Shown here piece after piece: positions 4,061-24,953 of a stretch of DNA of 64,000 nt. Each line of letters begins with the position of its first letter. Within the stretch, counting starts at the first letter, position 1. The stretch spans positions 60,789-124,788 of the forward strand of contig CAYNEM010000006.1 of NCBI GenBank assembly GCA_964396265.1, written 5' to 3'. The notes beneath the pieces were generated by a model. The model saw only the letters and a list, made by a program, of their open reading frames with translations, did not search any database and had not been told where the DNA came from. This stretch comes from an uncultured Methanomassiliicoccales archaeon. GTDB taxonomy: Archaea; Thermoplasmatota; Thermoplasmata; RBG-16-68-12; EA-27. A program made the position numbers and the translations under genes.

Positions 4061-4113
4061 TTCGCGCTCCTCCGGCGCATCCTTATATCGACCGCATACG
4101 GTTCCGAGCCGTC

Positions 4114-6608: not shown

Positions 6609-6687
6609 TTGCGACGGTCGCGGGACCCTCTTGGTTTGGGGGACGCAAACGAACCGCGAACGACGGTAGGATTACCGCGTCTCTGCC

Positions 6688-7959: not shown

Positions 7960-8165
7960 GACGCGCGCAGGGGATTGTCTCCATAAAAGGGTTCCTGGCC
8001 CTCTCCGAATCTCCCGGGTTGTCTGTAGGACCTCCTCTCGTCGAGCCCCACCATCCCTGCCGTCGGTGAGTGAGAACTGGAACTGAGGAAAGCGCATTCC
8101 TCCCACAACGCACGCGGCGCGCGGCGCCGAAGGTTTAAGGCCCATTTCCCTCTCCCATTGACGAG

Positions 8166-9542
8166 ATGCCCGGAACCGCGGTCGTCGGCCTCCAATTCGG
8201 CGACGAGGGCAAGGGGAAGATCGTCGACGTCCTCGCTGGGGAGTCCGACCTCGTGGTGCGCTTCAACGGAGGAGCGAACGCCGGGCACACGGTCCAGGTC
8301 GGGAACGAGCAGTTCGCGTTCCGTCTCCTCCCGAGCGGCATCATCCGGCCGAAGGTCCTGAACGTGATCGGCAACGGCGTCGCCGTGGATCCCGGCCAGC
8401 TCCTCGAGGAGATCGACGGCCTGCGCAAGCGCGGGTACGCCGTCGACAACCTCCGGGTGAGCGACCGAGCGCACCTCGTGCTGCCGTGGCACAAGACGCT
8501 CGACGAGCTCGAGGAGAAGGCGAAGGGCAGCATGGCGGCGGGCACGACACGACGTGGCATCGGCCCCGTGTTCGAGGACAAGGTCGGGCGGTGGGGCATC
8601 CGCGTCACGGACGCGCTCGACGAGATCGTCCTCCGGAAGAAGCTCGACTCTATCTATCCCGTGAAACTCAAGATGTCCAACGCGCTCGGCGGCACGGACA
8701 CGTTCTCCCTCGACGCCGTGTTCAGCCGGTACCGCGGGTACGGGGCAAGGCTGCGCGAGTTCGTCACCGACACGAGCGTCGTTGTCCACGAGGCGATCCG
8801 GAGCGGCAAGTCCGTCCTGTTCGAGGGCGCGCAGGGCACGCTCCTCTGCGTTGATCACGGGATCTATCCCTACGGGACCGCGAGCGCCTGCGTCGCAGGC
8901 GCGGCGACGGTCGGCGCGGGTGTGGGGCCGACGGCGATCTCCGCCGTGCTCGGGGTCGTGAAAGCGTTCACGAGCCGCGTCGGAGAGGGCCCGTTCCCCA
9001 CAGAGGTCCAGGACCCCGTCGCGTCACACCTCCGGGAGCGCGGCGGCGGGGAATACGGGACGGTCACGCGGCGACCACGCCGGGTCGGGTGGATCGACCT
9101 CGTCATGCTTCGGATGAGCGCGCGGGTGAACGGGCTCACGGGCTTCGCGGTGACGAAGATGGATGTCCTGGCGGGGCTGGACGCCGTGCGGGCGGCGATC
9201 GCCTATGGCCACGACGACAAGGAGCTGCGGGACTTCCCCGCCAACCTGCGCATCCTCGGAGAGTGCAAACCGGTGTACAAGGACCTCGAGGGTTGGGGGG
9301 ACCTTCCTCCGGAGGAGTGGCGACGGATCGCTGCCAAGGGATTCGACGCGCTCCCGAAGGCCGCACGGGCGTATCTCCGATGGCTCGAGACGGAGCTGGG
9401 CGCCCCTCTCGCGTTCGTGTCCGTCGGCCGGGGACGGGAGGACACGATCGACTTGCGGAAGGCCGCCAAACCAACCGCCCCCCAGCGACCGAGGACGACG
9501 ACGCTCCCTCGGAAGACGAAACGTCGGAAGCCACGCCGCTAG
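8166..9542 (+). CDS. purA: adenylosuccinate synthetase
   Basis: MPGTAVVGLQFGDEGKGKIVD..NAGHTV.. P-loop and overall AdSS layout. Has a basic K/R/P-rich C-terminal tail. Confidence 0.92.
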   Translation: MPGTAVVGLQFGDEGKGKIVDVLAGESDLVVRFNGGANAGHTVQVGNEQFAFRLLPSGIIRPKVLNVIGNGVAVDPGQLLEEIDGLRKRGYAVDNLRVSDRAHLVLPWHKTLDELEEKAKGSMAAGTTRRGIGPVFEDKVGRWGIRVTDALDEIVLRKKLDSIYPVKLKMSNALGGTDTFSLDAVFSRYRGYGARLREFVTDTSVVVHEAIRSGKSVLFEGAQGTLLCVDHGIYPYGTASACVAGAATVGAGVGPTAISAVLGVVKAFTSRVGEGPFPTEVQDPVASHLRERGGGEYGTVTRRPRRVGWIDLVMLRMSARVNGLTGFAVTKMDVLAGLDAVRAAIAYGHDDKELRDFPANLRILGECKPVYKDLEGWGDLPPEEWRRIAAKGFDALPKAARAYLRWLETELGAPLAFVSVGRGREDTIDLRKAAKPTAPQRPRTTTLPRKTKRRKPRR

Positions 9543-9593
9543 CGGTGGAGAAGACGAGGGAAGCCTCAGACGTTCGAGTTTTCGGGTACATCC

Positions 9594-10529
9594 TCAAGCG
9601 TCGGCGAGCTGCTCCAGATGGAGCCGCAGCTCGCAGGCTTTGCAGATCTCGTTGGCCGCGGGCTCCCCGCAGCGCGAGCACGGGTTCGGCGTCCCGGACG
9701 CGAACCTCTCCTGGAGGAGCGGGCGGAGCTGGTCGTACGTGCTCACGATCGCGTGGCGGGTGCCCGGCGCGGCCGCCTCCATCTGCGCGAGGATGGAACC
9801 GAACCGTCCCCGTTGTGCGCGCTCCGCGTACGGACAGGTCGCCTCGTGGAACGGGATACCGCGGAGCATCGCATAGAGGTACACCTCTTTCTCGGGGATC
9901 ATGCGCAACGGGCTCAGGCGGGGGACCAGGCCCGGCTGCGGGGTCTCATGAGGCCCCAGCCGCGCGAGACGGTCCATGTCCGCGCGCGCCACATTCATGA
10001 GGATCGACTGGGCCGTGTCGTCGAGGTTGAGTCCGGTAGCGACGTAGTCCGCGTCGACATCGCGGGCAGCGCGATTCAACGCTTGGCGGCGGAAGACGCC
10101 GCAGTATCCGCACGGGATCGCGTCCGCGTCGAGCTTCACGACGCGGTCCATCTCGAATCCCACGGTCTGGCGGTAGGAGATGACGCGGTGCTCGATGCCG
10201 AGGGACGCGCAGAGGCGCTTCGCGATCTCGATGCCCTGCGGGCGGTACGTGGCGATGCCCTCGTCCACCGTGATCCCGACGAGCTCGACCTCGCGCCGCG
10301 TGGAGGCGATGTCGTGCAGGAGGGTAGTCGCCGTGCAGCTGTCCTTCCCCCCGCTGATGCCGATGGCGATGCGCAAGCCGGGCAGGAGGTCGACCTCGCG
10401 GCGGAGCTCCTCCCTCGCGCGATTCTCGACGAAGGCGAGGAAGTGCTCCTGGCACAGGTGGGCGCCGCTGTACCGGATCCAAGCGACCGCCGCGCTCCCG
10501 CACTTGTCGCACGCCACGGACACCGCCAA
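9594..10529 (-). CDS. ncsA: tRNA 2-thiolation PP-loop ATPase (TtuA/NcsA family)
   Basis: SGGKDS PP-loop motif. N- and C-terminal CxxC zinc-finger pairs (CDKCGS..C; CSRCGEP..CKAC) are typical of the NcsA/TtuA/Ncs6 family. Confidence 0.85.
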   Translation of the reverse strand: MAVSVACDKCGSAAVAWIRYSGAHLCQEHFLAFVENRAREELRREVDLLPGLRIAIGISGGKDSCTATTLLHDIASTRREVELVGITVDEGIATYRPQGIEIAKRLCASLGIEHRVISYRQTVGFEMDRVVKLDADAIPCGYCGVFRRQALNRAARDVDADYVATGLNLDDTAQSILMNVARADMDRLARLGPHETPQPGLVPRLSPLRMIPEKEVYLYAMLRGIPFHEATCPYAERAQRGRFGSILAQMEAAAPGTRHAIVSTYDQLRPLLQERFASGTPNPCSRCGEPAANEICKACELRLHLEQLADA

Positions 10530-10563
10530 TCCGTCGGACCGTATTTAGGCCCGAGCCTCGGAA

Positions 10564-11190
10564 TCACCGGAGGCCGGCGACCTGGAGGATGCCGTCGAGG
10601 ACGAACTGGACGCCGACCGCCGCCAACACGATGCCCATGATCCGCCCGAACGCGATCGTCCCCGTGCGGCCCACGCGCCGGAAGACCCGGTCCGCATAAT
10701 TGAGCAACGCGAAGGTGATCAGCACCGCCGCCAAGATGCCCGCGAACACGAACAGCTTGTCGACCGGGTCTCCCGTGTCCGTCGTCATGTACACGAGCAC
10801 GGTCGTGATGGCGCCCGGCCCCGCAAGGAGGGGGATTCCGAGGGGCACCACGCCCAACGCCTCGACCTCCTCCTCGCGCCCGCGCTCCGTGATGCGGACC
10901 CGCGACGTCCGCTGCCCCTGCGTCATCTGGAACGCGGTGGCGAACAGGAGGATGCCGCCGGCGATCTTGAACGCAGGGATCGTGAAGTTGAACACGGCGA
11001 AGATCCACACGCCGAAGATCGCGAAGACCCCGAGGGTCACGGCCGCGACGAGGCAGCTCTTCGTGATCACCTGCCGCTTCTCCTCTGCCGTGAAGCCCTC
11101 CGTCAACACGAGGAACGGCGCGATGACGCCCGGGGGATCGATGATCGCGACCAAGCTGAGGATGACCGCCAAACCGAACGCGATATCGAC
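10564..11190 (-). CDS. MarC-family (UPF0056) integral membrane protein
   Basis: Multi-TM protein whose N-terminus matches MarC (..LVDIAFGLAVILSLVAIIDPPGVIAPFLVLTEGFTAEEKRQ..). The maximal ORF reaches 11265 with a TTG start and a non-MarC leader; the likelier start is the in-frame TTG at about 11190. Start is uncertain. Confidence 0.7.
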   Translation of the reverse strand, partial: VDIAFGLAVILSLVAIIDPPGVIAPFLVLTEGFTAEEKRQVITKSCLVAAVTLGVFAIFGVWIFAVFNFTIPAFKIAGGILLFATAFQMTQGQRTSRVRITERGREEEVEALGVVPLGIPLLAGPGAITTVLVYMTTDTGDPVDKLFVFAGILAAVLITFALLNYADRVFRRVGRTGTIAFGRIMGIVLAAVGVQFVLDGILQVAGLR

Positions 11191-11326
11191 CAACGCCCAT
11201 CCCTTGCCGTCTGGCGGGGCGTCGCACGGACCGGCCCGTATAAGTGGCTTTCGAAGCGATTCCAAGGATAGGATGCGGGCATCGCGACGTGCGGGGAGAA
11301 ACTAGATATACGCCGCCAAGACTAAG

Positions 11327-12364
11327 ATGGGCAAGAGAGAAACGATGCCCGTCGACCTGAAGCTCGAGACGATGCGCCGCGGCACGGACCTGCTCAAGCG
11401 CGGGTTCGCGAAGATGCAGAAGGGCGGCGTGATCATGGACGTCACGAACGCGGAGCAGGCCTCGATCTCCGAGGAGGCGGGCGCGGTGGCGGTGATGGCC
11501 CTCGAGCGCGTCCCCGCGGACATCCGCGCGGAGGGCGGCGTCGCGCGCATGGCGAACCCTCAGAAGATCGTCGAGATCATGGAGACGGTCACGATCCCCG
11601 TGATGGCGAAGTGCCGCATCGGGCATTTCGCGGAGGCGCAGGCGCTCGAGTCCCTGGGTGTGGACATGGTCGACGAGTCCGAGGTGCTCACGCCGGCCGA
11701 CCCGTACTTCCACGTTGACAAGAGGAAGTTCACCGTGCCGTTCGTGTGCGGCTGTCGCAATCTCGGGGAGGCCGTGCGTCGGATCTACGAGGGCGCCGCA
11801 TTGATCCGCACGAAGGGCGAGGCGGGCACGGGCAATGTCGTCGAGGCGGTGCGGCACATGCGCCTCCAGACGGCGGCGGTCGCGGACCTCCGGAACAAAG
11901 ACGACGACGGGCTCCACCGCGTGGCGGTGCACTGTGCGAAATCGTACACCAAGCTCCTCGAGGAGGCGCGCGCGTCGATGGGCCTGCCGGCCAAGGTCGA
12001 CATCCACGAGCCCCTCTTCGGCGAGGACACCTTGGATACGATCGAGTCGGGTCTCCACGCGCTCCTGATCGAGGTGCGCGACGTGCGGCGCCTCCCCGTC
12101 GTGAACTTCGCCGCCGGCGGCATCGCGACGCCCGCGGACGCGGCGATCATGATGCAGCTCGGATGCGACGGCGTCTTCGTCGGCTCGGGGATCTTCAAAT
12201 CCGAGGACCCCGCGGTGCGCGCGAGGGCGATTGTGGAAGCGGTCCTGCACTTCGACGATCCTGCCATCGTCGCGGAGGTCTCGAAGGGACTCGGCCCGCC
12301 GATGAAGGGGATTGAGATCAGCCAGCTTCCTGCGGAGGAGCGTCTGCAAGAGCGCGGCTGGTGA
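11327..12364 (+). CDS. pdxS: pyridoxal 5'-phosphate synthase subunit PdxS
   Basis: Near-full-length identity pattern to PdxS/Pdx1/SNZ (..[35 protein letters not shown]..). Confidence 0.95.
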
Positions 12365-14909: not shown

Positions 14910-15658
14910 AATCGCAGGGGCGAAGAGCTGCGCGATTCATCCCCTTTTCGGCGAGTCGATCGCACGACTCCTCCAAGTCGGTGACAAGACCCCGGCGGGA
15001 CGTAAGGTTCTCGGAACCTACAAATGGGCGCACCAATATCCATTTCGCCCATAGAGCGCATGGCGACCAACGTGAAGGGGTTGGCGGGGTTTGTCGCGTG
15101 CATCATCACCGTGCTGGTGCTACCTACGGCCGCGCCGATGTCGTCGGGCGGGGTCCTTTTCGAGACCCGCGAAACCGAGCCGATTCTCCGAGTGGGCACG
15201 ATTGACGAGATGAAAACGAGAAACCCGATTAACGCGAGTGCCCGGGACATGTGGACCTCAGACGCGACGTCGACGATCGTCCGAGGCACGTCGAGGCGGT
15301 GTGCCCGCCCCGCGACGTTCGTCGGCACGACGGCGCGCACGAGGCCTGGGGGGAACCCCGCGCCCTTGAATGCCCACCACGGGTCGAAGTGGAGGAGTCC
15401 CTCGAATCGCTTCAGATCCATGGGAGGCGCCGCGATCATCTCGCCGGCGGTGCAGTTGATACGAATCTCGCGGCCTGCGTACGTCACGTCCCGGTCCCAG
15501 ATCGTCGGGGGCCTCCCGAGGACGTCGAGCGCGATGAAAGGGACGCGCCAGTGGACGTTGAAGAACGGGAGCACGTACTTCGCGTACCATCGCGTGTCTT
15601 TCAGCGCGACGTGCACGCCGGCGAGCTGGCGCTGCGTGACGACCTCGTCCGGTCTCAC
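14741..15658 (-). CDS. hypothetical protein (translationally coupled to rfcL; 3' part overlaps taw1)
   Basis: Its GTG start overlaps the rfcL stop as GTGA. The first ~215 aa look protein-like (W/F/Y-rich with one hydrophobic helix). The last ~90 aa are S/R/A low complexity and overlap taw1 by 168 nt, so a frameshift or a shorter real product is possible. Confidence 0.45.
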   Translation of the reverse strand: MRPDEVVTQRQLAGVHVALKDTRWYAKYVLPFFNVHWRVPFIALDVLGRPPTIWDRDVTYAGREIRINCTAGEMIAAPPMDLKRFEGLLHFDPWWAFKGAGFPPGLVRAVVPTNVAGRAHRLDVPRTIVDVASEVHMSRALALIGFLVFISSIVPTRRIGSVSRVSKRTPPDDIGAAVGSTSTVMMHATNPANPFTLVAMRSMGEMDIGAPICRFREPYVPPGSCHRLGGVVRSTRRKGDESRSSSPLRLWSTRSSARSLSARATRSSASTAASRCAIGRRASSRRASAATRKRFTESTPTAASR

Positions 15659-16998
15659 GTCCCCTCGCCTTCGAAGGTGCTCAGGCCGCCGCGCGCCTTC
15701 GGCGCCTCCCCGCGCATCGCCGCCAGCTCGCGCACCTCCTTCGAATCCTCGTCTGCGTCGAGCAAGAACGCGAGCTCCTTTTCATCGAGGAAGAGCGCCG
15801 CCGCCATCGCGCGCCGGAACTCCGCGTCCGCCCGGAACACCTCTTTGAAGGACGGGAGGACGTCGAGGGCCGTGCGCCGCCAGGACGCGTGGGTGCTCCC
15901 GCCGATCTTCCGACACACGGACTGCGTGGTCTGGCGGCGCGATCGGGTACGCGCCATCTTCGACAGCCACAGCGGGAACCGGTACGGCCCGCCGCCAGCA
16001 CGGCCGTGCCGCGCCACCGCCACCCCCGCGGTCATCATGTCGGACGCGTACGCCCAGAAGCGGTACGCCTGCACACGCCGCACCCGCCCCAGCCACACGT
16101 CCGCGCGAGAGAGCGCCTCGTACCCTCGCGCGAGGTCGTCGGGGTCGCGATACTCGTAGGGGAGGTTCTCGTCGATCCACAGGATGAGGTCCTCCGGGTC
16201 CTTGTCCAGGTTGTCCGTCGCGCGACGCGCGCGTCTCGCGTCCCCGGATTGGAAGATCTCGCGGAGTGCGTCGAACACGTTGCCCTCGACGTCGCGGTCA
16301 CCCAGCTTCACGACGTCTGCGGCGGGGACCACCTTCTTGCCCTCCGCGAGCGCCTGCAGGTCGTTCATCGCGCTCCGGAGGTCCCCGGCCGCATGGGCAG
16401 CAATCGCGTCGAGCGCCTCCTCGGAGAGGGACACCTCCTCCGTGTCTGCGGCGCGCTTCAGCGCCTGCTTCACGGCCTGCAGCGTGAGCCGGTTGAACTT
16501 GATCTGCCTTGTGAGGGACTTGATCGATCCGGACCGGCGGGACAGCTCGTAGTAGTCATTGCAGATGAGGACAATCGGCTGGCGGGTCTGGCGGATCGCG
16601 TCGACGATCGCGCCGATGCCGCCGAAGTCCTCGCGGCCGAACAGGTTGTCCGCCTCGTCGAGGATGATGACCGTGCGCTTCCCCTCGGAGGTCCGCAGGA
16701 ACTCCCCGGTCGCCGAGAACGTCTGCGTGATCGCCCCCTGGAGCGCGATCTTGCGTACGGCCTCCGCGTTCCGCTTGTCCGAGGCGTTCATCTCGACGAC
16801 GCCCCACCCCATGTCCGCCGCCAAGGCAAGCGCAGAGGACGTCTTCCCGACCCCCGGGGGCCCACTGAGGACGACCGCCCGCTTCTCCGGCGGCTTCTTG
16901 CGCCACGACTCCGCCCATCGCTTCAGATCCTGGATGGCGGTCGGGTTGCCGCATACGTCCTTCAGGGTCTTCGGGCGGTGCTTCTCGGCCCAGTCCAT
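15655..16998 (-). CDS. rfcL: replication factor C large subunit
   Basis: N-terminus MDWAEKHRPKTLKDVCGNP.. Walker A LSGPPGVGKTS, DEAD-like ILDEAD, and the RfcL C-terminal domain. Confidence 0.92.
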   Translation of the reverse strand: MDWAEKHRPKTLKDVCGNPTAIQDLKRWAESWRKKPPEKRAVVLSGPPGVGKTSSALALAADMGWGVVEMNASDKRNAEAVRKIALQGAITQTFSATGEFLRTSEGKRTVIILDEADNLFGREDFGGIGAIVDAIRQTRQPIVLICNDYYELSRRSGSIKSLTRQIKFNRLTLQAVKQALKRAADTEEVSLSEEALDAIAAHAAGDLRSAMNDLQALAEGKKVVPAADVVKLGDRDVEGNVFDALREIFQSGDARRARRATDNLDKDPEDLILWIDENLPYEYRDPDDLARGYEALSRADVWLGRVRRVQAYRFWAYASDMMTAGVAVARHGRAGGGPYRFPLWLSKMARTRSRRQTTQSVCRKIGGSTHASWRRTALDVLPSFKEVFRADAEFRRAMAAALFLDEKELAFLLDADEDSKEVRELAAMRGEAPKARGGLSTFEGEGT

Positions 16999-17121
16999 GA
17001 GGGTGGGAGCGCGTGAGCGGGTTTAAGGGCTCGGCTCGCACCGCCGAAACTACTCCGAACATACCGGACGGAAGTAAACATTAAGCCTCAGTCGGAGTTC
17101 CCCGCCTCGGGAGGAAGCCCC

Positions 17122-17463
17122 ATGATGTGGATGAACAGCGGCAACATCAAGGAAGGCCGGATGAAGGAATTCCAGGAGTGGACGAAGAAGAACGAGAAGC
17201 TCCTGCAGAAGAACGCCCCGTCGGGATGGACGTATCGCGGCACGTACGCGTACGTCCTCGGCTTCGGCCGGTTCGGCGTGGCGGGAATGTGGGAATGCGA
17301 GAAGTACGGCGACTTCGACAACCTGCGCAACCACGACGACAAGAACTGGATGCGCCTGAACGAGGAGATGTCCGACTTCTTCGATCAGTCCGCGAGCGAA
17401 GGCGTGCTCCTGCGAGAGATCGGTGACACGAAGATCTTGGAACCGAAGAAACCACGACCGTAG
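17122..17463 (+). CDS. hypothetical protein (lower-GC, island-associated)
   Basis: 113-aa ORF, K/E/W-rich, with a GGGAGG Shine-Dalgarno-like motif about 8 nt upstream. Lies in a locally lower-GC stretch next to the recombinase genes. Confidence 0.5.
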   Translation: MMWMNSGNIKEGRMKEFQEWTKKNEKLLQKNAPSGWTYRGTYAYVLGFGRFGVAGMWECEKYGDFDNLRNHDDKNWMRLNEEMSDFFDQSASEGVLLREIGDTKILEPKKPRP

Positions 17464-17787
17464 CCCGGCTCGTTCGTGACAGGACGTGACACATTGAGGC
17501 CAGTTTAGCTCCAGCCTAGACTATTCATCGCTGTCACGTATCCGCTTGACTAGTCAAGCTTCCACCTAGAACGCCGTCGAAACCCGCTTTTCGGGCGGTT
17601 CGACCGGGTGTTCTCGCAACGATCGCGCGATCCCCGCTCCGGACCGCTCTCATGCTCCCGCGGGCACCTCGTCGCCGGAACGCGAGCTCCGCGCACACGA
17701 GTGGCGACCATGAGCATCCGCAGCATGGAAACCCTCACTTCGGTTTGTCAAGACGGGGGAGGTCGAAACGGTCTACCGTTTCGAACG

Positions 17788-18474
17788 CTACTTTCCCCTC
17801 GACGGGGGCTTGAACAGGGCGGCGTCACGCTTCTGGTCTGGCCTCCGGATGCGCTTCTCCATCTCGACCTGCACCTGGGAGAACTTGTCCTGGTCCACGA
17901 TCGGGCGGTGCTTCCCGTTGCGGAGTCCCCCGTCCTGGCGGATGTACCCGCAGTACAGCGGGTTCCTCAGGATGTTCGCGATCGTCTGGCTTTGCCATCG
18001 CTTCCCGGTCTTTGTGCGGATCTCCGCGCGGTTGAGCTCCTCGCAGACTTTTGCGATGCCACGGCCCTCGAGATACATCTCAAAGATCAGGCCGACCGTG
18101 CGCGCCTCGTTCGGGTTCACCTTGAGCGCACCGTCGCGCGTCTCGTACCCGTAAGGCCGCGTGAACTCCTCGAACCCCAGGCCCGAGCCGCCCGAACCGT
18201 GTGACAAGATACCACGTATCATGGTCTTGTAGTCGAGCTTGCGCTCGACGCACAGCTTGCGCACCGCCTCGTCCTCGTCTTTCGCACTGAAGTGCGAGAG
18301 CATCTCCTTCGTCGACCCGAATCGCAGGAAGATCTCCCGGAAGACGACGGGGTCCTTCGGAGCTGCCTCGCGACACGCGCGGCACAGGACGGGGGCCCGC
18401 ATGTCCTCAATCGGGTGTTCCTGAAGGCCGCTCCGGCTCCAGCATCGCTCGCACCGGTCGTTCCCCACGGTCAC
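17788..18474 (-). CDS. serine-recombinase-family protein lacking the catalytic resolvase domain (zinc ribbon + recombinase domain)
   Basis: N-terminal CxxC..CxxC (CERCWS..CRACRE), then the 'recombinase' domain motif RPYGYETRDGALKVNPNEARTVGLIFEMYLEG..IAKVCEELN..GIRTKTGKRWQSQTIANILRNPLYCGYI. No YxRVSTxxQ catalytic motif. Confidence 0.75.
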   Translation of the reverse strand: MTVGNDRCERCWSRSGLQEHPIEDMRAPVLCRACREAAPKDPVVFREIFLRFGSTKEMLSHFSAKDEDEAVRKLCVERKLDYKTMIRGILSHGSGGSGLGFEEFTRPYGYETRDGALKVNPNEARTVGLIFEMYLEGRGIAKVCEELNRAEIRTKTGKRWQSQTIANILRNPLYCGYIRQDGGLRNGKHRPIVDQDKFSQVQVEMEKRIRRPDQKRDAALFKPPSRGK

Positions 18475-19286
18475 GCCTCCGCCGCCAAACGATCAGCCTC
18501 GATCGCGAGCACGACCTTTCTCCCTTGAACAGCGTCCCACAATCGGTGATCGACGATCGGCTGATGGGAATCGTCGCGGACGCTCTCGTCCCATCGGATC
18601 TTCCCGACGTAGACCGGATTGTGCAGCATGTAGCGGATCCCGGACTTGCTCCAGCGGCGGCCCCGCTGCGAAGGGATCCCATCGTCGTTGAGTTTGGCGG
18701 CGATCGCATGGAAGGCGCGCCCCTGGGCGTATTCCTCGAAAATGCCTCGGACGATGCGCGCCTCCGCCTCGTCCACGATGAGCGCACCGTCCACGTATCG
18801 ATACCCGAAGGGGCGGCGGAACCCGTTGAGCCCTTCCCCGGCCTTGTGCTTCTGCGCCATCCCCATGTACACGCGCTCCCCGATCTGCTCGGACTCGAGC
18901 TGCGCGATGCGCTGGATGATGTCCATGACGAAGCGCCCCATGGCGGTGGAGGTGTCGAGGGACTCCGTCGCGCTCACGAAGTCCTTGCCCCACTTCCCCA
19001 GGTCGTCCATCATCCCCATGAAGTTCCGCGAGTTGCGGTGGATCCGGTCCATCTTGATCACGAGCATCTTGTCCCAGGCATCTCGGTCCGCAAGCATCCG
19101 CTGGTACGCGGGACGGTTCACGTTCCTCCCGGTGTGGCCGTCGTCCACGTACTCCTGCGCGACGGTCCAGCCCTGGGCGCGGCAGAATGCATGGAGACGC
19201 TCGCTCTGCGCGTCGAGGGAGAAGCCCTCCTTCGCCTGATCCTCCGTGGATACGCGGGTGTAGAGTGCGACGCGTTGAGCTGCCAT
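18471..19286 (-). CDS. serine recombinase (resolvase/invertase catalytic domain + recombinase domain)
   Basis: Catalytic-Ser motif VALYTRVSTEDQ, then the recombinase-domain motif (RPFGYRYVDGALIVDEAEARIVRGIFEEY..GIPSQRGRRWSKSGIRYMLHNPVYVG). Its stop overlaps the downstream gene start by 4 nt. Confidence 0.88.
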   Translation of the reverse strand: MAAQRVALYTRVSTEDQAKEGFSLDAQSERLHAFCRAQGWTVAQEYVDDGHTGRNVNRPAYQRMLADRDAWDKMLVIKMDRIHRNSRNFMGMMDDLGKWGKDFVSATESLDTSTAMGRFVMDIIQRIAQLESEQIGERVYMGMAQKHKAGEGLNGFRRPFGYRYVDGALIVDEAEARIVRGIFEEYAQGRAFHAIAAKLNDDGIPSQRGRRWSKSGIRYMLHNPVYVGKIRWDESVRDDSHQPIVDHRLWDAVQGRKVVLAIEADRLAAEA

Positions 19287-19352
19287 CTAGGAATCCTTCT
19301 CCTGCGGGAGCGTCGATACGCGCGCGTAGAGTGCGACTCGCTGAGTGCCCAT
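19287..19352 (-). pseudogene. duplicated 5' fragment of the serine recombinase gene (21 codons then a stop)
   Basis: Translates MGTQRVALYARVSTLPQEKDS* against MAAQRVALYTRVSTEDQ.. of the full gene immediately downstream. A ~30-bp direct repeat (GTAGAGTGCGAC.CG.TGAG.TGCCCAT) spans both start codons. Confidence 0.6.
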
Positions 19353-19626
19353 CCCGGGCCCGCATTTGCGCGTCGGCACTTAAAAGTGAGTCCGCAAGAG
19401 CACGCGATGCCCCAGAGTGAGTTCGAACCATGCCCCACATCGTGCTACATCGTGGCGAGTGACGGACCGTGTTTAGATTCAAGCTTGAATCGCCTCGTTC
19501 CAAACGCGAACTGCGAGACTAGTCTTGGATGCACCTAAACCGACCGCATCCGCGGTACAACGTCCCACCCTGGGCAACGATCGGGCCTGCCCGTTCCGCG
19601 GCCCTCGTTCGCTAGGCCCCCGGCTG

Positions 19627-19761
19627 ATGAACGAAAAAGAAAAGCAAGGCCCCGCGCTCGGCGCGTTCTGCAAGCTGGATTGGCGGCTCTTCGACCCGGC
19701 GAACCTCGAGGGGCGGTTCGATGGAGAGCGGTACTTGGAAGCTGTCCCGGGAATGAAGTGA
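19627..19761 (+). CDS. small conserved ORF A (~44 aa), paralog of ORF B
   Basis: MNEKEKQGPALGAFCKLDWRLFDPANLEGRFDGERYLEAVPGMK. It shares LDWRLFDxAxLxxRFxGxRYxE with ORF B at 20632. The two copies differ mostly at synonymous sites. Confidence 0.5.
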   Translation: MNEKEKQGPALGAFCKLDWRLFDPANLEGRFDGERYLEAVPGMK

Positions 19762-19802
19762 CGGACGGTCGCTGAGGTCCGGCTGATTACATTTAATTAC
19801 AT

Positions 19803-19810
19803 TTATATAC
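19803..19810 (+). promoter_or_regulatory. TATA box (TTTATATA) for the UPF0175/PIN operon, preceded by tandem ATTACATTTA repeats
   Basis: AT-rich motif 30 nt upstream of ATG 19833 in an otherwise GC-rich genome. Implies a leaderless transcript. Confidence 0.6.
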
Positions 19811-19832
19811 AAGTGTAACGCTGGCAACCTCC

Positions 19833-20132
19833 ATGAAGGTCATCACCGTCCGGATCCCCGACGAGGATGCCGAGTCCCTGGAGTCCATCGAGCGCGCCGA
19901 GAAGGTGGACCGCGCGGCCGCGGTCCGGAAGCTCCTCTCCGAGGGCATCAACCGGTGGAAGGTGCAGAGGGCCCTGGATCTCCTCCGCCAGCATCGGGTG
20001 ACCCTGCGCACAGCGGCGCGCATGGCGGGCCTCTCCTACGGGGAGATGTTCGATCTGGCGGGCCGGGCGGACATCACGACAGGCTATTCCCTTCAGGACC
20101 TCCGACAGGACCTGGGGGAGCCGGACCGGTGA
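19833..20132 (+). CDS. UPF0175-family antitoxin-like protein
   Basis: 99 aa. C-terminal HTH (VTLRTAARMAGLSYGEMFDLAGRADI) typical of UPF0175. Strong TATA box TTTATATA at 19803-19810, 30 nt upstream of the ATG. Its stop overlaps the start of the PIN gene. Confidence 0.75.
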   Translation: MKVITVRIPDEDAESLESIERAEKVDRAAAVRKLLSEGINRWKVQRALDLLRQHRVTLRTAARMAGLSYGEMFDLAGRADITTGYSLQDLRQDLGEPDR

Positions 20133-20632
20133 TCGTCGATTCCTCCGCCCTCATCCCGCTCAGCCGCATCGGCCGCCTCGACCTGCTTCGCCGGTTGTAC
20201 CGCCCTGTGAGGACGACGCGGGACGTCTACCGCGAGTGCGTCGAGGAGGGGGCAGCCCGGCCCGGAGCCGACGCCCTTCGCGAGGCCTGCGAGCGGTGGC
20301 TTGAGGTCGTGGAGCCCCCCCGCGGCGCCGCGCGACTGGCCGCCGCCGAGGGGATCGAGCTAGCCGACGCCTCGCTCCTGCTCCTGTGCGAGGAGGCGAA
20401 GGACGCCCTGCTCACGAACGACGACCACCTGATGCGCGTGGCCCGGGCGCGCGGGATCCGGGGGCGCTGGCTCACGGGCGCCGTCCTCGCCGCCACACGG
20501 AGGGGACTGTTGACCCCCGCGGAGGCGAAGGAGCTCGTGACCCGGCTCGTCGGCGAGGGACTGTGGCTCTCCCCCCAGGTCTTCGTGGCAGTGCTGGACG
20601 CAATTGAGGCGATGACCGCTTCCCCGCGGTGA
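20129..20632 (+). CDS. PIN-domain toxin (DUF3368-like), partner of the UPF0175 gene
   Basis: GTG start overlapping the antitoxin stop as GTGA. VIVDSSALIPL.. and ..LLTNDDHLMRVA.. acidic residues fit a PIN nuclease of the type usually paired with UPF0175. Confidence 0.7.
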   Translation: MIVDSSALIPLSRIGRLDLLRRLYRPVRTTRDVYRECVEEGAARPGADALREACERWLEVVEPPRGAARLAAAEGIELADASLLLLCEEAKDALLTNDDHLMRVARARGIRGRWLTGAVLAATRRGLLTPAEAKELVTRLVGEGLWLSPQVFVAVLDAIEAMTASPR

Positions 20633-20772
20633 TGGCAGGTGAACGCAGAGAGCTATTGGACTGGCGACTGTTTGATTCCGCGACACTGTCCCGGCGGTTC
20701 AACGGGGACAGGTACGTCGAGCGCCTGAAGGGCCTGAGGCCGTCCCCGGACGAGGTTCGGCGAAAGGCTTAG
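20632..20772 (+). CDS. small conserved ORF B (~46 aa), paralog of ORF A
   Basis: MAGERRELLDWRLFDSATLSRRFNGDRYVERLKGLRPSPDEVRRKA. Its ATG overlaps the PIN gene stop as TGATG. Confidence 0.5.
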   Translation: MAGERRELLDWRLFDSATLSRRFNGDRYVERLKGLRPSPDEVRRKA

Positions 20773-20784
20773 GGCCCAGATGGG

Positions 20785-21138
20785 TCAGCCTTTGAGCCAC
20801 TTGGAGGCCCTCTTTGCGTCCCGCTCGAGTTCCTCGGGCGAATACCGGAAGTAGGGGATGCCCCGCTTGGCGGCCTCGTCGACCATTTCGTAGATACTCA
20901 CGCCAGCGTAGGCGGCAGCCCCGCCAAGGCTGAACTTGCCATGGAGGTACTTCTCCAGCGCGCGTTCCATTCGCAGCCGCCGGAGGCCCTCGTCCACCGC
21001 CCGCCGCGCCACGTCGGATCGGAGGAGGCGGAGGTCCGCGGCCAGCTCATCGATCTCCTCTAGGACATGCTCGTCCTTGCGGATCTGGAGGTTCTTCACA
21101 GGGCGATGTAATGACTTGTCATGTGATAAACTTTCCAT
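20785..21138 (-). CDS. UPF0175-like HTH protein (orphan antitoxin-like)
   Basis: 117 aa from ATG 21138. C-terminal ..KFSLGGAAAYAGVSIYEMVDEAAKRGIPY.. resembles the UPF0175 HTH. The longer 266-aa ORF upstream of it is low-complexity and unlikely to be translated. Confidence 0.5.
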   Translation of the reverse strand: MESLSHDKSLHRPVKNLQIRKDEHVLEEIDELAADLRLLRSDVARRAVDEGLRRLRMERALEKYLHGKFSLGGAAAYAGVSIYEMVDEAAKRGIPYFRYSPEELERDAKRASKWLKG

Positions 21139-21287
21139 CAGACGAGCCTCAGTGGAGGTTCCACCCTCCGCCGCGGGAAAGGAAGGAAGGGGAACAGGAC
21201 CCCCGGCGGAGGAACGTGCGCCAGGTCCAAGGCATGGGATTCTGCCATCGATGTATTTAAATGGCATTATGGCATAGTCTACCGCCG

Positions 21288-21554
21288 ATGGCGGAGCTCG
21301 TTTCGGTGGACCGCGCAGGGCGCGTCGTGCTGCCCAAGAAGATCCGAGACGCCTTGGGTATCGACGAGCGGACGAAGCTCCTCGTCGCGGTCGGTGAGCA
21401 CGGTCGACTGGTGCTCCAGAAAGTGGATGTGGAGGCCATCGCGGGTCGGCTGGAGAAGGAACTCGCCGGGAAGGACGTGGATGCGATTGTCCGGAAAGTC
21501 CGGAGGGAGATGAAGGCCCTTGCCCGCCGCCGGTATCCGGACCTTCTTGCTTGA
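21288..21554 (+). CDS. vapB: AbrB/SpoVT-type antitoxin (VapB-like)
   Basis: MAELVSVDRAGRVVLPKKIRDALGI.. swapped-hairpin AbrB motif. TATA-like TATTTAAAT at 21254-21262. Confidence 0.8.
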   Translation: MAELVSVDRAGRVVLPKKIRDALGIDERTKLLVAVGEHGRLVLQKVDVEAIAGRLEKELAGKDVDAIVRKVRREMKALARRRYPDLLA

Positions 21555-21951
21555 CACGAACGTCTTCGTGGCAGCGGTGAAGCACCCGGCGAGGGAGACC
21601 GCCACGCTCCGTCTCCTCCTCGAGGTCCTTCGGCGCGACGACGTCGCTCTCGTCGGGAACGACCTGTGGCTCGAAGAGATGCTCCGGTATGCCGAGGCCT
21701 TCCGTTCCGAGACCGCCTCCCAGCTCGTCGCCGCCTTAGTCGAGAAGACGCGGTTCGTTCGCGTCGACGCAAGCTTTCGGGCCGTCTGCCGACGGTTCAT
21801 GACCACTCCCGACCCCGCGGATGTCCTCCACGCCGCGACCTGCCTGCAGGAACGGGCGGTCCTCGTCACGAACGATCGGCACTTCGACCGGATCCGGAAG
21901 GAGGGCATCGTCGAGGTCTGGGACATCGCGAAAGCCATTCACTCCCTCTGA
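21520..21951 (+). CDS. vapC: PIN-domain toxin VapC
   Basis: FLLDTNVFVAA.. and ..VTNDRHF.. match conserved PIN acidic residues. Overlaps the 3' end of vapB, so its exact start is uncertain. Confidence 0.8.
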   Translation: MPAAGIRTFLLDTNVFVAAVKHPARETATLRLLLEVLRRDDVALVGNDLWLEEMLRYAEAFRSETASQLVAALVEKTRFVRVDASFRAVCRRFMTTPDPADVLHAATCLQERAVLVTNDRHFDRIRKEGIVEVWDIAKAIHSL

Positions 21952-22178
21952 GTCCCGCCGTTAGGTCGATGGACGAGTGCGAGCCGTAGCTGGACTAGCC
22001 GACGTTCTGCAAGGTGGAGTGGCAGCTCTTGACCCCGTCGACCTGACGCCCGTCCCGAAAGCTGGCATCGGATCCCCGATGGGGCGAGGCGACTTCTCCG
22101 CGACATGTCGCGCGCATCCCTTTCGACAGAGAAACCCAACCAGGCTCGGCGGCGACGAGCCGCCAGAAGGACCCAACC

Positions 22179-22637
22179 ATGCGAACGAACGAAGAAGGTG
22201 TGTCTCCGGTGATTGCGACCATCCTGATGGTGGCGATCACCGTGGTGTTGGCGGCGGTGCTGTACGTGATGGTGACGAACCTGATCGACGACCCCGGCGG
22301 ACGGCGACCCATCGTCACCCTGGACTCGATGGGATGCGATGCGGTTGAGTGCCGGGGGCGCGTGACGGCTGCCTCGTCGCCCTCGGTCGATCTGGGCCGG
22401 TTCCGCGTGACCGTCCTCGCCGACGGGAACGCCCTGATCCTCCCGACGGAACTTGTGGCCGGCGTGGACATCAGCGGAGGGGGCCTCACGCTCCGATACA
22501 CGGATCTTGGTGCCGAGGGGAAGGTGACGGGCGGCGACACGTTCCGCATCACGGGGATCTCGGCGGGGGTGGAGTACGAGGTCGTTCTCTTGTGGAACGA
22601 CGGAACGGGAATCCAGTCCGTGACGTTCAGCACCTAG
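22179..22637 (+). CDS. archaeal type IV pilin-like protein (class III signal peptide, DUF1628-type N-terminus)
   Basis: MRTNEEGVSPVIATILMVAITVVLAAVLYVMV is a typical prepilin-peptidase (PibD/FlaK) substrate N-terminus (..G/VSPVIA..). Confidence 0.8.
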   Translation: MRTNEEGVSPVIATILMVAITVVLAAVLYVMVTNLIDDPGGRRPIVTLDSMGCDAVECRGRVTAASSPSVDLGRFRVTVLADGNALILPTELVAGVDISGGGLTLRYTDLGAEGKVTGGDTFRITGISAGVEYEVVLLWNDGTGIQSVTFST

Positions 22638-22664: not shown

Positions 22665-24953
22665 TCAATTCCCCCGATCCACCAACAGCCGCTGGACCTC
22701 GTCGCGGTCCCTGCGCGCCCCGAGCCCTTCGAAGATCGCGAGCGCTCGCCGCAGGTGCTCGAGGCCACGGGCATCCGTGCGGAGGCGCCCGAGGTTGCGG
22801 TGCACCTCCCCCATCTGCCAGAGGAAGCCGAGCTTCTCGGACAGCACGAGGCTCCGCTCGTAGAACCTGGCGGCGTTCGCCGCATCCCCCTTCCGCCGGT
22901 ACGCCTCCCCGATGTTGTTGTACAGGATCGCGACCGTGCGGTGGTCGCCCAGCTCCTCGCTCAGCCGGAGCGCGTCCGCGTAGTCCGCGAGCGCGCCGTC
23001 GACGTCGTCCCGCTGCCACCGCAGGATTCCGAGGTTGTTGAGCGCGCCCGCGACCCCGGCCGCATCGCCGACGGCCTCGTACGCCTCCCGGCTGCGGCGG
23101 TACAGGTCCGCGGCGGCGTCGAGGTTCCCCGCCTGCCATTCGAGGATGCCCAATGCGTTGAGGATGCGCGCCACGATCGACTGGTCGGCGTCGCCGACGA
23201 TCCCCAGTGCGCGCTCGAACGAGGCGCGCGCGACATCGAAGTCCCCTTGGCGGTATTCGATCACGCCGAGCTCGAGGACGCCGCGCGCCTCGCCTCGCCG
23301 GTCGCCAAGATCCTCCGCGAGGGAGCGCGCCTCGTCGAAGCTCTCCCGGGCGCCGGGCCATTCGCCGCGGACGGACTGGAGCTCGCCTCGCAGGAGGAGC
23401 AGGGGGACGCGGCCCGCGGGCTCCAGCGCCCGCAGGTCGAACGAGGCGAGGAGCTTCATCACGTCGTTCTGGAGGCCTTTGGCGGCGAGGGAGCGGCCGA
23501 TTCCGCCGAGGAGCGCGGCCGCGTCCTTCGTGCGTCCCGCCTGGATGAGGTGGTACAGCATCTCGACGCGCGCCTCGGGGTCCGCGAGGGCCTCGTAGTG
23601 CGACGCCGCGAGCGCGTGCAACCGGAGGCGCTGGGGCGTGGTCAGGCGTGAATAGAAGAACTCCCGGAGGAGGTCGTGCATGTCCGCAGTGCCGCCGCCA
23701 ATCCGGACGAGGGACCGCTCCGCAAGCGCCTCGAGGCGACCGACGTCGCTGACCTCTGGCGCGACGGCCTCGAGGGCGACGGGATGGCGGTGCACCGCCA
23801 GCGAGGCGACGATATCCTGTTCTCGTGCATCAAGCTTCGAGGCGACCTCCTCGCGCAGGTACGCGCGCACGTCCGTCATTCCCTGACCGCCCGAGGCCGC
23901 GACGAGCTCGAGGAACAGGGGATGGCCCTTCGTCGCCACCACGAGTTCCGCGCGCCGGTCTGCGGGTACGCCCCGATCTTGCAGGAGCCGGAGGGCGCTC
24001 GCCTCATCGAGGCCGCCAAACTCGAGCTCGACCACGAGGCCCTCGAGGCTGACCTCCCGCCGCGAGTAGAACACGGGGATCCGACGCCCGGCGATCACGA
24101 GCTTCGCGCGCGTCCCCCCGAGCACGCGAACGAGCTGGGTCAGCAGGCCGGCCAACCCCTCCGGAGCCTTGTGGACATCGTCCAGGAAGGCAATCATGGG
24201 GAGGTCGCGGACCTCCGCGGCGATCCGGGTCAGCATCTCCTCGACGGGGACCGTCCGCTGCACGTCGATTGTGCGCCCGACCTCCCGCAGTTTGGCGGCG
24301 ATCCCCGCGAGGACCTGCTCCGTGGTCGTCCACTCCGTCACGCGGAACCATACGGTGACGGCGGAATCGGCGCCCTCCGCGAGCCGCGCGAGGAAGGCGG
24401 TCTTGCCGACGCCTGGCAGTCCCCGGACCGTTAAGCACACGGCCGGTGACTTGAGGAACTCGCGCGCTGCCGCCAATTCCCGGGACCGCCCGTAGAAGCG
24501 CCTGGGGGTCGCGGTCGTCGGGGGCGCACGCGCGCGGGAGGCGTCAAGATCGAGTACACCGTCCGTCGCCGCCAATGCGAGGTCGAGGAGCGTCGTTCCC
24601 ATGGGGGCGAGCGGCAGAGATTGCGAGAGTTCGGCGATCTGTTCCGTGCCGCCGGAACGCACGCGCACACGCGTGGCGGCGATCCGCGTCCGCAAGGCCT
24701 CCGCCGCCTGGGCCCCCGCGGGGGTCAGCACGTACACCTTGCGCCGCCGGCCGCCCGCCTCCACGTGGGCCATCCGTTTCGTGACGTGCCCGCGCGTCTC
24801 CATCTCGCCGAGGACGGCGGAGACGTGGCTGCGGCGCACGCTGACCGCGAGGGCGATCCCCTGCTGCGTCATCTCGAACGGGACCTCGAAGCGCTCCCCG
24901 CGGCGCACGTACGCGAGGAGGTGGAGCAGGATGCGCTCCTCCGCGGTCAGCAT
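22665..24953 (-). CDS. STAND-class NTPase with N-terminal winged-helix, central NB-ARC-like AAA ATPase and C-terminal TPR repeats
   Basis: N-terminal MarR/ArsR-like wHTH (LLHLLAYVRRGERFEVP..). Walker A GLPGVGKTAFLARL and Walker B MIAFLDDVH. C-terminal TPR units (ALNNLGILRWQRDDVDGALADYADALRLSEELGD..). Confidence 0.85.
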   Translation of the reverse strand: MLTAEERILLHLLAYVRRGERFEVPFEMTQQGIALAVSVRRSHVSAVLGEMETRGHVTKRMAHVEAGGRRRKVYVLTPAGAQAAEALRTRIAATRVRVRSGGTEQIAELSQSLPLAPMGTTLLDLALAATDGVLDLDASRARAPPTTATPRRFYGRSRELAAAREFLKSPAVCLTVRGLPGVGKTAFLARLAEGADSAVTVWFRVTEWTTTEQVLAGIAAKLREVGRTIDVQRTVPVEEMLTRIAAEVRDLPMIAFLDDVHKAPEGLAGLLTQLVRVLGGTRAKLVIAGRRIPVFYSRREVSLEGLVVELEFGGLDEASALRLLQDRGVPADRRAELVVATKGHPLFLELVAASGGQGMTDVRAYLREEVASKLDAREQDIVASLAVHRHPVALEAVAPEVSDVGRLEALAERSLVRIGGGTADMHDLLREFFYSRLTTPQRLRLHALAASHYEALADPEARVEMLYHLIQAGRTKDAAALLGGIGRSLAAKGLQNDVMKLLASFDLRALEPAGRVPLLLLRGELQSVRGEWPGARESFDEARSLAEDLGDRRGEARGVLELGVIEYRQGDFDVARASFERALGIVGDADQSIVARILNALGILEWQAGNLDAAADLYRRSREAYEAVGDAAGVAGALNNLGILRWQRDDVDGALADYADALRLSEELGDHRTVAILYNNIGEAYRRKGDAANAARFYERSLVLSEKLGFLWQMGEVHRNLGRLRTDARGLEHLRRALAIFEGLGARRDRDEVQRLLVDRGN

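Follow-up and report, generated by a model that had tools for sequence, protein, structure and literature searches.

We analysed a 64-kb stretch of DNA (hereafter the window; GC 0.665, i.e. 66%) from an archaeon of the class Thermoplasmata, in which two overlapping genes on the minus strand, named here recA and recB, encode proteins of the serine recombinase family. recA (18471-19286) encodes 271 amino acids with a Resolvase (PF00239) and a Recombinase (PF07508) domain, recB (17788-18474) encodes 228 amino acids with the Recombinase domain only, and 4 nt after the recB stop codon begins a perfect 10+2+10 palindrome with a non-palindromic centre, TCGAAACGGT-CT-ACCGTTTCGA (17763-17784), which we refer to as site 1. 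On this side the pair is followed by the decayed remnant of a small gene of the family DUF7557 and by rfcL, the gene for the large subunit of replication factor C (RFC; 15655-16998, minus strand); on the other side lies a group of toxin-antitoxin (TA) genes. The original prediction had taken the whole interval for one accessory island. Its gene content (a serine-recombinase pair, two TA modules and a lone antitoxin) was confirmed by Pfam, and the island itself holds for the TA block (19546-22148), whose site is empty in the related loci L007, L011 and L013, but not for recA and recB, which are syntenic among relatives and co-diverge with RFC. The explanation that we prefer, if still somewhat tentatively, is that the interval combines two unrelated things: a conserved chromosomal recombination module (~17590-19352), whose role may resemble that of the dif or res systems, and a strain-specific insertion hot spot (19546-22148).

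recA is the counterpart of the N-terminal part, ~255 residues, of a large serine recombinase (LSR). As in the LSRs TP901-1, A118, phiC31 and Bxb1, a catalytic domain with the serine nucleophile (PF00239, E = 3e-35) is followed by an LSR-type recombinase domain (PF07508, residues 174-256, E = 4e-23). The residues R11, S13, D80, R81 and R84 do not vary among 14 aligned sequences, one of which is the window recA (alignment A1), and the best match in the PDB is the N-terminal (catalytic) domain of the TP901-1 integrase. In LSRs the recombinase domain comes after the long helix E, and a C-terminal zinc ribbon with an inserted coiled coil controls directionality. recA, in contrast, ends at residue 271 right after the recombinase domain, with no match to PF13408 and no zinc-ribbon/coiled-coil domain, and a separate, non-catalytic partner is encoded downstream of it. 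This partner, recB, is translationally coupled to recA, its GTG start overlapping the recA stop (GTGA); it matches PF07508 (residues 121-208) and lacks a catalytic domain. Its LSR recombinase (DNA-binding) domain is preceded by a CxxC...CxxC zinc ribbon at the N-terminus and by a helical region, and the AlphaFold model (pLDDT 80) finds solved LSR structures as its top matches in Foldseek, the best chain being 4kis_B of an LSR-DNA complex (E = 3e-6); these matches cover the recombinase-domain fold, and Foldseek gave no structural match for the zinc-ribbon motif that precedes it. The four cysteines and an RIRRPDQ motif are invariant or nearly so (alignment A7). Compared with the close strain L169, the ratio of nonsynonymous to synonymous substitutions (dN/dS) is 0.16 for recA and 0.12 for recB.

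The best NCBIfam matches of the two proteins are CcrB and CcrA of the staphylococcal cassette chromosome (SCC, e.g. SCCmec), which resemble recA and recB also in being encoded by two tandem genes of the serine recombinase family beside one housekeeping gene. However, the scores lie far below the cut-offs (recA against the N-terminal half of CcrB, E = 5e-52, 177 bits versus 900; recB against CcrA, E = 4e-13, 49 bits versus 700), both Ccr proteins are full-length catalytic LSRs of 440-540 amino acids whereas recB is non-catalytic, and the SCC is a mobile cassette with flanking att repeats, of which none was seen at the recA/recB module. The nearest plasmid or phage relatives of recA outside the archaea are (phage) integrases of Firmicutes, with at most 40% identity. 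Small serine recombinases consist of a catalytic domain followed by a C-terminal helix-turn-helix, in about 180-200 amino acids; recA has no HTH_7 match, and chains of the Gin, gamma-delta and Tn3 type align to its catalytic domain only. Serine transposases of the IS607 type carry a MerR-like helix-turn-helix at the N-terminus and the catalytic domain at the C-terminus, and are often accompanied by TnpB. Such a transposase was rejected, as NF033518 covers the catalytic core only (37.6 bits versus a cut-off of 110), the domain order is opposite and there is no TnpB. Directly upstream of recA we also noticed a 66-nt tandem duplicate of its 5' end (direct repeat D1), which forms an upstream open reading frame (uORF; 19287-19352, minus strand) of 21 codons, MGTQRVALYARVSTLPQEKDS, whose TAG stop abuts the recA ATG in frame. 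A similar, independent uORF occurs in the L011 lineage, and L160, L007, L013 and L014, which have no uORF, carry the same promoter box directly before recA.

A family scan with one genome per species returned 308 loci with a recA relative, nearly all of them from metagenome-assembled genomes (MAGs) of Thermoplasmata or Methanomassiliicoccales, and 80 loci were fetched with 8-10 kb on either side. Homologues of site 1 occur in ~45 other loci, once per locus and downstream of the recombinase genes, with the core GGT(AG/CT)ACC. They consist of inverted arms of 10-13 nt, ending in CGGT, around a 2-nt centre, and the arms vary by lineage yet stay complementary (AAACGG/CCGTTT, ACACGG/CCGTGT, GCTTCGG/CCGAAGC, GTTACCTTCGG/CCGAAGGTAAC). 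Across 30 sequences the arms pair in 84.6% of the cells, a value that is inflated by the choice of part of the set for palindromy, compared to 64.8% in shuffled sequences, and 75 cells are changed on both sides (30 in shuffles); for both measures none of 500 shuffles was as high, and controls with slid arms paired in at most 43%. The centres are AG (15), CT (9), TC, AA, CA, TT and TG, so that all 31 distinct sites of the palindromic type are non-palindromic at the centre. The symmetry runs through the T..A pair beside the 2-nt centre, which is impossible in an RNA loop, and mismatches of the G.T and A.C types are about equally frequent (18 versus 15), with no excess of G.U-compatible mismatches on the sense strand; this equality speaks for a DNA site rather than an RNA hairpin. 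A search of Rfam gave no match in 16500-22500. Because the non-palindromic 2-bp centre and the symmetry resemble the architecture of hix and att sites, the known crossover sites of serine recombinases, site 1 is very probably a site of double-stranded DNA with the layout of such a crossover site, and thus the predicted binding and crossover site of the encoded enzymes.

The central dinucleotide is the polarity determinant of LSR att sites, and in site 1 it is non-palindromic as in those. It differs among strains whose recA proteins are 87-91% identical: the window and L161 have AG, and L160, L169, L174, L193 and L200 have CT, with identical arms. The same AG/CT flip is seen between L059 and L064 and between L023 and both L042 and L044. 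Such flips may come from hairpin-mediated template switching; what counts is that they are tolerated. The attP and attB sites of LSRs measure about 40-50 bp and have only the central dinucleotide in common. Site 1 differs from them in being short (22-28 bp), mostly a near-perfect palindrome, and single; no attP/attB pair was seen in the window or in the fetched loci. A second copy of site 1 was found neither in the 64-kb window, which held background near-matches only, nor in any fetched locus. Among the 80 matches listed in a metagenome scan, 13 were accompanied by recA/recB, all of them beside recB and without a second copy, and the remaining 67 were unrelated, mostly with CG or AT centres or within coding sequence. 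A scan of viral contigs yielded 43 matches, all in unrelated low-GC phage DNA or coding sequence and none with a recA relative.

The symmetry of the site varies with the number of catalytic genes at the locus. Most Thermoplasmata loci carry recA and recB, loci of the Methanomassiliicoccales type carry two full catalytic genes in tandem, three loci contain recA, recB and a second catalytic gene, and some have a solo recA. In 14 loci with two tandem catalytic genes (L054, L056, L057, L068-L070, L075-L077, L083, L084, L090-L092; e.g. L069 at ~10770-10820) the site is asymmetric, CAAGTTGAYRTTMGGG-AG-WCCGTCGYWTRAC, and always in one orientation; it lies ~170-190 nt upstream of the DUF7557 gene and up to ~3.6 kb of ordinary-looking genes away from the recombinase genes. 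The arms are unequal also in L059 and L064, the scored loci with recA, recB and a second catalytic gene. At loci with a single catalytic gene (n = 42) the outer arms are symmetric at 6.2 of 9 positions on average, compared to 1.7 at loci with two (n = 15; Mann-Whitney p = 2e-8, uncorrected for phylogeny). As with XerA versus XerC/XerD, this pattern suggests that a palindrome would be bound by a homodimer and an asymmetric site by a heterodimer, and homodimer versus heterodimer recognition is what the link between gene number and symmetry directly predicts. We consider this link the strongest indirect evidence that the site is the substrate of the enzymes.

Synteny sets recA and recB apart from an island. 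In L007-L011 and L013, where recA is 73-78% identical to that of the window, recA and recB lie between the pilin gene and rfcL, and TA genes are missing. More generally, rfcL and tyw1 directly follow the pair in ~45 of the 80 fetched loci, and the HMG-CoA reductase gene (hmgA) lies 270-430 nt upstream of recA in ~30. From these adjacencies we deduce the ancestral order hmgA - recA - recB - rfcL - tyw1; with the site and the DUF7557 gene included, the order hmgA - recA - recB - site - DUF7557 - rfcL - tyw1 recurs in dozens of Thermoplasmata species. In the clade of the window a block of ~5 kb with a regulator and the pilin gene has been inserted between hmgA and recA; the pilin gene was therefore rejected as the target of an invertase, its adjacency to recA being confined to the clade of the window and L007. 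Pairwise identities of recA and RFC are closely correlated over 43 genomes (Mantel r = 0.92; 0 of 2000 permutations as high), recA being more conserved than RFC in 94% of the pairs; it is about as conserved as tyw1 and more so than rfcL. Given the synteny, the co-divergence with RFC, the low dN/dS and the invariant catalytic residues, the comparative data indicate that recA and recB are vertically inherited within the Thermoplasmata under strong purifying selection, and are not an island. Two loci deserve separate mention. In L248 (= L021), the region 4866-12100 holds a solo recA paralogue (P0059) together with genes for a SocA-ParE pair and an N6/N4 DNA methyltransferase, numerous hypothetical genes and a Ku gene; these surroundings look like an integrated mobile element, and the same genome also has a copy linked to rfcL. 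L045 and L055, both from the 'complete' MAG CP070767.1, lie at distant positions and contain hmgA and recA at identical offsets, with a run of N after recA in L055, and are either a real duplication or an assembly artefact.

In nearly all loci the space between the site and rfcL holds a very highly conserved DUF7557 gene. Intact orthologues of 47-56 amino acids were found in more than 30 loci (e.g. L007 9580-9723, L013 9596-9739, L028 10008-10160), with the conserved motif TTIQLTxxTRDRLYRLKFRKTYDEFLxELCDLYE and with the family assigned by Pfam. The window strain and its close relatives have a decayed copy, with recA, recB and the site intact: the remnant of this small, ribbon-helix-helix (RHH)-like gene (~17590-17726, minus strand) shows deletions of 4 and 27 nt and a broken frame when aligned to L013. 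The stretch from site 1 to the DUF7557 start contains a conserved box, GTCTTGACAAACC (17742-17754, minus strand), which is kept in L007, L011, L013, L016 and close relatives and is probably part of the promoter/operator region of the DUF7557 gene. Across the loci, this promoter region contains either the box TTGACAAnCCATAG or a second conserved palindrome of 28 bp, ATAGnnCTATrTG-NN-CAyATAGnnCTAT, located 62 nt from site 1 (centre to centre) and ~33 nt before the DUF7557 start codon (L020 2247, L024 9673, L028 9975, L059 3784 and about 15 other loci); this second palindrome is probably the TATA/operator region of the gene. Between the decayed gene and rfcL sits orf113 (17122-17463, plus strand), a reading frame of 113 codons without a match in Pfam, NCBIfam or PHROG, whose orthologue in L013 is 84% identical and which has none in L007 and L011.

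Several further palindromes around the recombinase genes had been proposed as recombination sites, with GACTAGTC and TTCGAAC as cores common to both sides. All of them exist, three at positions shifted by 4-16 nt. On the left, GCTTGACTAGTCAAGC is a perfect 16-bp palindrome (17544-17559); on the right we find GAGACTAGTCTTG at 19515-19527 (first reported at 19511-19523), the 16-bp palindrome GATTCAAGCTTGAATC at 19476-19491 (first reported at 19470-19485) and GTTCGAAC at 19421-19428 (first reported at 19405-19412). Their frequencies in the window are those of the background: GACTAGTC occurs twice (0.5 expected; 12 of 100 shuffles reach two copies), ACTAGT twice (2.3 expected), TTCGAAC 11 times (9.8 expected), GTTCGAAC three times (1.6 expected), and there are three perfect 16-bp palindromes (2.8 expected), two of them in this region. 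The sole statistically outstanding palindrome is the 10+2+10 palindrome of site 1, unique in the window with 0.13 expected. It was already part of the original prediction as a hairpin, and for this element the suggestion of a recombinase site very probably holds. The tetranucleotide CTAG is indeed conspicuous, with 24 copies in the window, where by our own arithmetic ~200 would follow from base composition, and 9 of the 24 lie in 17000-22200.

Conservation likewise speaks against the GACTAGTC and TTCGAAC motifs, which we ruled out as recombination cores by frequency and lack of conservation. The left GACTAGTC core is kept in the close relatives L160, L161, L169, L174, L193 and L200, and L013 has the unrelated GCGTGAATCCTCTCGC at its position; on the right, L169 reads AGAATATTCT, a compensated palindrome, L007 and L011 have no palindrome, and GACTAGTC is absent in L013 also. 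Hence the palindrome GCTTGACTAGTCAAGC is a lineage-restricted motif outside the recombination system, and the GACTAGTC palindromes are probably lineage-specific protein-binding motifs, i.e. operators, rather than a pair of recombination sites. The 10-bp palindrome AGACTAGTCT of the right site (19516-19525), which ends 9 nt before a CCTAAAC box, is probably a promoter-proximal operator. Upstream of recA, GATTCAAGCTTGAATC directly adjoins a conserved TAAAC box, and L007 has a different palindrome, CCCAATTGGG, at this place (~7880-7890); two differing palindromes at one position suggest an operator with a lineage-specific sequence. A CTAG-containing direct repeat at 17516-17528 and 17566-17578 (minus strand, TCTAGGTGGAAGC and TCTAGGCTGGAGC, ~50 nt apart) brackets the left GACTAGTC palindrome, and both copies and the CTAAAC box that follows are kept in L013 and close relatives. 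Neither the recombinase genes nor the TA block are bordered by two related sites, and there is thus no evidence for the excisable or invertible segment proposed earlier. Inversions or alternative junctions were also discarded, since over 7 kb the contigs of this strain from other samples (L001-L006) are identical to the window or differ from it by at most 2 mismatches. The flanks of the recombinase genes are AT-richer, as had been noted, with a GC content of 0.602 at 17100-17800 and 0.593 at 19290-19830 versus 0.665 in the window (the lowest 1-2% of windows of the same size); they are mostly intergenic and contain TATA-like boxes. The TA block, with a GC content of 0.657 (31st percentile), is compositionally ordinary.

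The TA block is a true insertion. Comparison with L007, L011 and L013, the relatives with an empty site, and with L169 places its junctions at 19545|19546 and 22148|22149, between a conserved CCTAAACCGACC box and the 5' region of the gene for an archaeal pilin (22179-22637, plus strand), which is followed by a gene for an AAA/TPR regulator (22665-24953, minus strand). L169 (2408-7058; ~86% DNA identity in the flanks) has a different insert of 4.65 kb at the same two junctions, with genes for two secreted proteins, an intact gene of 406 codons (3422-4642), an RHH-PIN pair and a 52-codon copy of the 3' end of that gene (2464-2622). The comparison identifies the locus as an insertion hot spot, situated just downstream of the CCTAAACCGACC / pilin promoter box. 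On the plus strand, the block of the window comprises TA1, with an antitoxin of the RHH/UPF0175 type (19833-20132, Pfam) and a PIN-like DUF3368 toxin (20129-20632; Pfam, and a gene call in L001), and TA2, with an antitoxin of the AbrB/MazE type (21288-21554; PF04014 and gene call) and a PIN toxin of the VapC type (21520-21951; PF01850, E = 6.6e-12); a lone UPF0175 antitoxin-like gene (20785-21138; PF03683, E = 2.5e-12) lies on the minus strand. The AbrB/MazE gene overlaps the PIN gene at 21520-21554, and both combinations are predicted TA pairs. Domain pairs and overlapping genes of this kind, in a strain-variable block, are typical of VapBC and of UPF0175/DUF3368 modules.

Unlike in such modules, the TA genes are here separated by duplicated 3' ends of a gene of ~406 codons. 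Two small reading frames on the plus strand, sORF44 (44 codons, 19627-19761, copy 1) and sORF46 (46 codons, 20632-20772, copy 2), are 3'-end fragments of this family of ~406-414 amino acids (P0166), as seen in a profile search and by tblastn to residues 380-411, and were thus ruled out as independent small genes. The start of sORF46 overlaps the stop of the TA1 toxin gene, and at the DNA level it shares 84% identity with the 3' end of the complete L169 gene. A third copy is a decayed remnant of 39 nt (22003-22041, plus strand; direct repeat D7, alignment A9), 82% identical to 19664-19702. The full-length family has no match in Pfam or PHROG. The repeated 3' ends between the TA modules suggest successive insertions into the end of the ~406-codon gene; to our knowledge, duplicated 3' gene ends between TA modules are not a described cassette boundary. 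An integron was rejected: neither an integron-type tyrosine integrase (IntI) nor an attC site is present at the block, the recombinase of the locus is a serine enzyme, and the repeats are coding 3'-end fragments and not attC-like palindromes. recA and recB were rejected as mobilisers of the block, there being no sequence like site 1 at the junctions, and nothing ties the TA block to them. Two further sequence features were noted within the block. A tandem direct repeat, ATTACATTTA ATTACATTTA, at ~19783-19803 in an AT-rich stretch just upstream of the TA1 antitoxin start resembles an antitoxin operator. A 14-bp palindrome, CGCGACATGTCGCG (22099-22112), lies upstream of the pilin gene, its ACATGTC core being kept in L007, L011, L013 and L169 and a fuller form, CGACATGTCG, being present in L011 and L013; it may be a pilin operator or an element of the 5' untranslated region.

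How the conserved module might work can be outlined from these features; here we infer binding, cleavage position, partner site and biological role, as well as any part that recB takes. A dimer of recA would bind the two 10-13-bp arms of site 1 and cut at the 2-bp non-palindromic centre. The partner site would most likely be an identical copy on a sister or dimeric replicon, as there is one site per locus and its polarity relative to the flanks flips freely among near-identical strains. Such freedom is irrelevant for an identical copy on a sister or dimer, but not for a fixed pair of inversion or excision sites, and it therefore favours an outcome like that at dif or res, i.e. the resolution of multimers, rather than an excision or inversion switch. 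Where a lineage has two catalytic paralogues, a heterodimer would act on two different arms in the manner of XerC/XerD. The proposed likeness to Xer/dif lies in one palindromic site per replicon and in chromosomal, vertically inherited recombinases; there, too, the site is symmetric where one recombinase acts and asymmetric where two paralogues do. Xer acts on a site present once, near the terminus of replication of a circular chromosome; of site 1, one copy was seen in the window and in each fetched locus. Xer proteins are, however, tyrosine recombinases, and dif has a spacer of 6 nt (PMC8371274), whereas recA and recB belong to the serine recombinase family and the centre of site 1 measures 2 bp, so the likeness would be functional only. 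With the res systems (Tn3/gamma-delta, Sin, beta, and ParA of RK2) the module shares a serine recombinase that is encoded beside its own single site and, as proposed here, recombination between identical direct copies; the second palindrome at a fixed 62 nt in many loci recalls the accessory sites of res. Resolvases, on the other hand, carry a C-terminal helix-turn-helix in place of the recombinase domain of recA, their accessory sites are bound by the same protein, whereas the second palindrome here is more likely the promoter of the DUF7557 gene, and they sit on mobile replicons. LSRs likewise differ from the module in this last respect, since the genes here are chromosomal, syntenic and vertically inherited rather than borne by mobile elements.

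Resolution of replicon dimers, in the way of dif or res, is in our view the best account of the module, and we hold it with reservation, giving the explanation as a whole slightly less than an even chance. Several points weigh against it. The case for the function of the site is an anatomical one, and hairpin-mediated template switching can flip the centre without any recombinase. Part of the site set was picked for palindromy (at least 9 of 13 matches), which inflates the percentage of paired cells and not the covariation, and the test of symmetry ignores phylogeny, the two-gene class amounting to about two clades. The search of these genomes for a second or divergent partner site was confined to the 64-kb window and the 8-10 kb on either side of each locus. 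The loss of the DUF7557 gene means that the module may be partly degenerate in the window strain. Solo members of the family in contexts like that of L248 make an integrase-like role possible. Dimers are already resolved by XerA/dif in most archaea, Thermoplasma acidophilum among them (PMC8371274), so that a second system for this purpose would be redundant. The main rival turns the integrase-like role into a function of the site: site 1 could be a chromosomal attachment site (attB), a landing pad at which viruses or plasmids are integrated and excised by the resident recA/recB or by relatives that the elements encode. The descent of recA from LSR-type integrases, with Firmicutes phage integrases as its nearest non-archaeal relatives, would fit this, as would the solo paralogue, the varying length of DNA (~0.4-3.9 kb) between the recombinase genes and the site and DUF7557 gene in loci of the Methanomassiliicoccales type, and the unequal, hybrid-like arms of some sites (L024, L033, L042); a free flip of the centre is neutral for an attB too. 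We nevertheless regard it as unlikely, since no locus has two hybrid sites flanking inserted DNA, most sites of single-gene loci are near-perfect palindromes and not hybrids, no viral contig contains both the site and a recA relative, the inserted DNA of L069 encodes ordinary-looking membrane and enzyme genes, and a recombinase encoded beside an unoccupied attB corresponds to no known arrangement. Were it true, the conserved module would serve or police the traffic of mobile elements instead of resolving dimers.

The other alternatives are considerably less probable. That the palindrome is an operator, or else a hairpin that terminates or stabilises the transcript of the recA-recB operon, with the proteins as domesticated DNA-binding regulators of DUF7557 and rfcL, would suit its place between the 3' end of the operon and the DUF7557 promoter, with the fixed spacing of 62 nt from the second palindrome in many loci, and covariation taken alone fits an RNA stem equally well. 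We think this improbable in view of the symmetry through the T..A pair beside the centre, the lack of a G.U-compatible excess (18 versus 15), the occurrence of the centre in both orientations, the distance of up to ~3.6 kb between recA and a site that then adjoins the DUF7557 gene, the invariance of the catalytic residues and the dependence of symmetry on catalytic gene number. About equally doubtful is a small integrative element that has inserted repeatedly at one target upstream of rfcL, as the SCC does at rlmH, so that the position would reflect target specificity and not descent. The best family matches, CcrB and CcrA, are indeed the tandem recombinases of an element whose integration target is always the same housekeeping gene, and some genomes have a second copy elsewhere; yet the module co-diverges with RFC (Mantel r = 0.92), keeps both flanks, hmgA and rfcL, at near-constant spacing, and has neither cargo nor a flanking att-like repeat. 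An empty hmgA-rfcL junction was not found among the loci either, a weak check as the loci had been gathered via recA itself. Least probable of all, and largely refuted, is the idea that the whole of 17.1-22 kb is one integrated, excisable or invertible element, whose recombinase pair acts on the GACTAGTC/TTCGAAC palindromes as ends or switch sites. The only two copies of GACTAGTC in the 64 kb do flank the recombinase genes, two of the three perfect 16-bp palindromes of the window are found in this region, CTAG is locally enriched, and the TA block is a true indel. Against this stand the background counts of the motifs, the absence of the right GACTAGTC from L007, L011 and L013 (with AGAATATTCT in L169) and of the left one from L013, the synteny of the recombinase genes and their co-divergence with RFC across the class, and the junctions of the indel at 19545|19546 and 22148|22149, which leave the recombinase genes outside and contain none of the motifs.

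Returning to dimer resolution as the preferred account, its wider form concerns the whole group. It is possible, if rather less so than the explanation of this locus, that the Thermoplasmata and a few neighbouring lineages have a housekeeping serine-recombinase system between hmgA and rfcL, a counterpart of Xer/dif that serves dimer resolution or another essential single-site reaction. Its parts would be a truncated LSR-like enzyme, sometimes with a second paralogue or a non-catalytic partner, one crossover site with an asymmetric 2-bp centre, and the DUF7557 protein. Our literature search found no paper on this module or on DUF7557, and according to a review from 2021, serine recombinases of archaea had been observed in transposons only and had never received proper study (PMC8371274). 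A minimal LSR-type enzyme of 271 amino acids that acts on a site of 22-28 bp could be of interest to recombinase engineers. For the annotation of genomes, serine-recombinase genes should not be taken automatically as markers of mobile elements or genomic islands. If our reading is true, these archaea would possess a kind of chromosomal site-specific recombination system that was unexpected in archaea, with a fixed place between two essential genes and one cognate site of its own.

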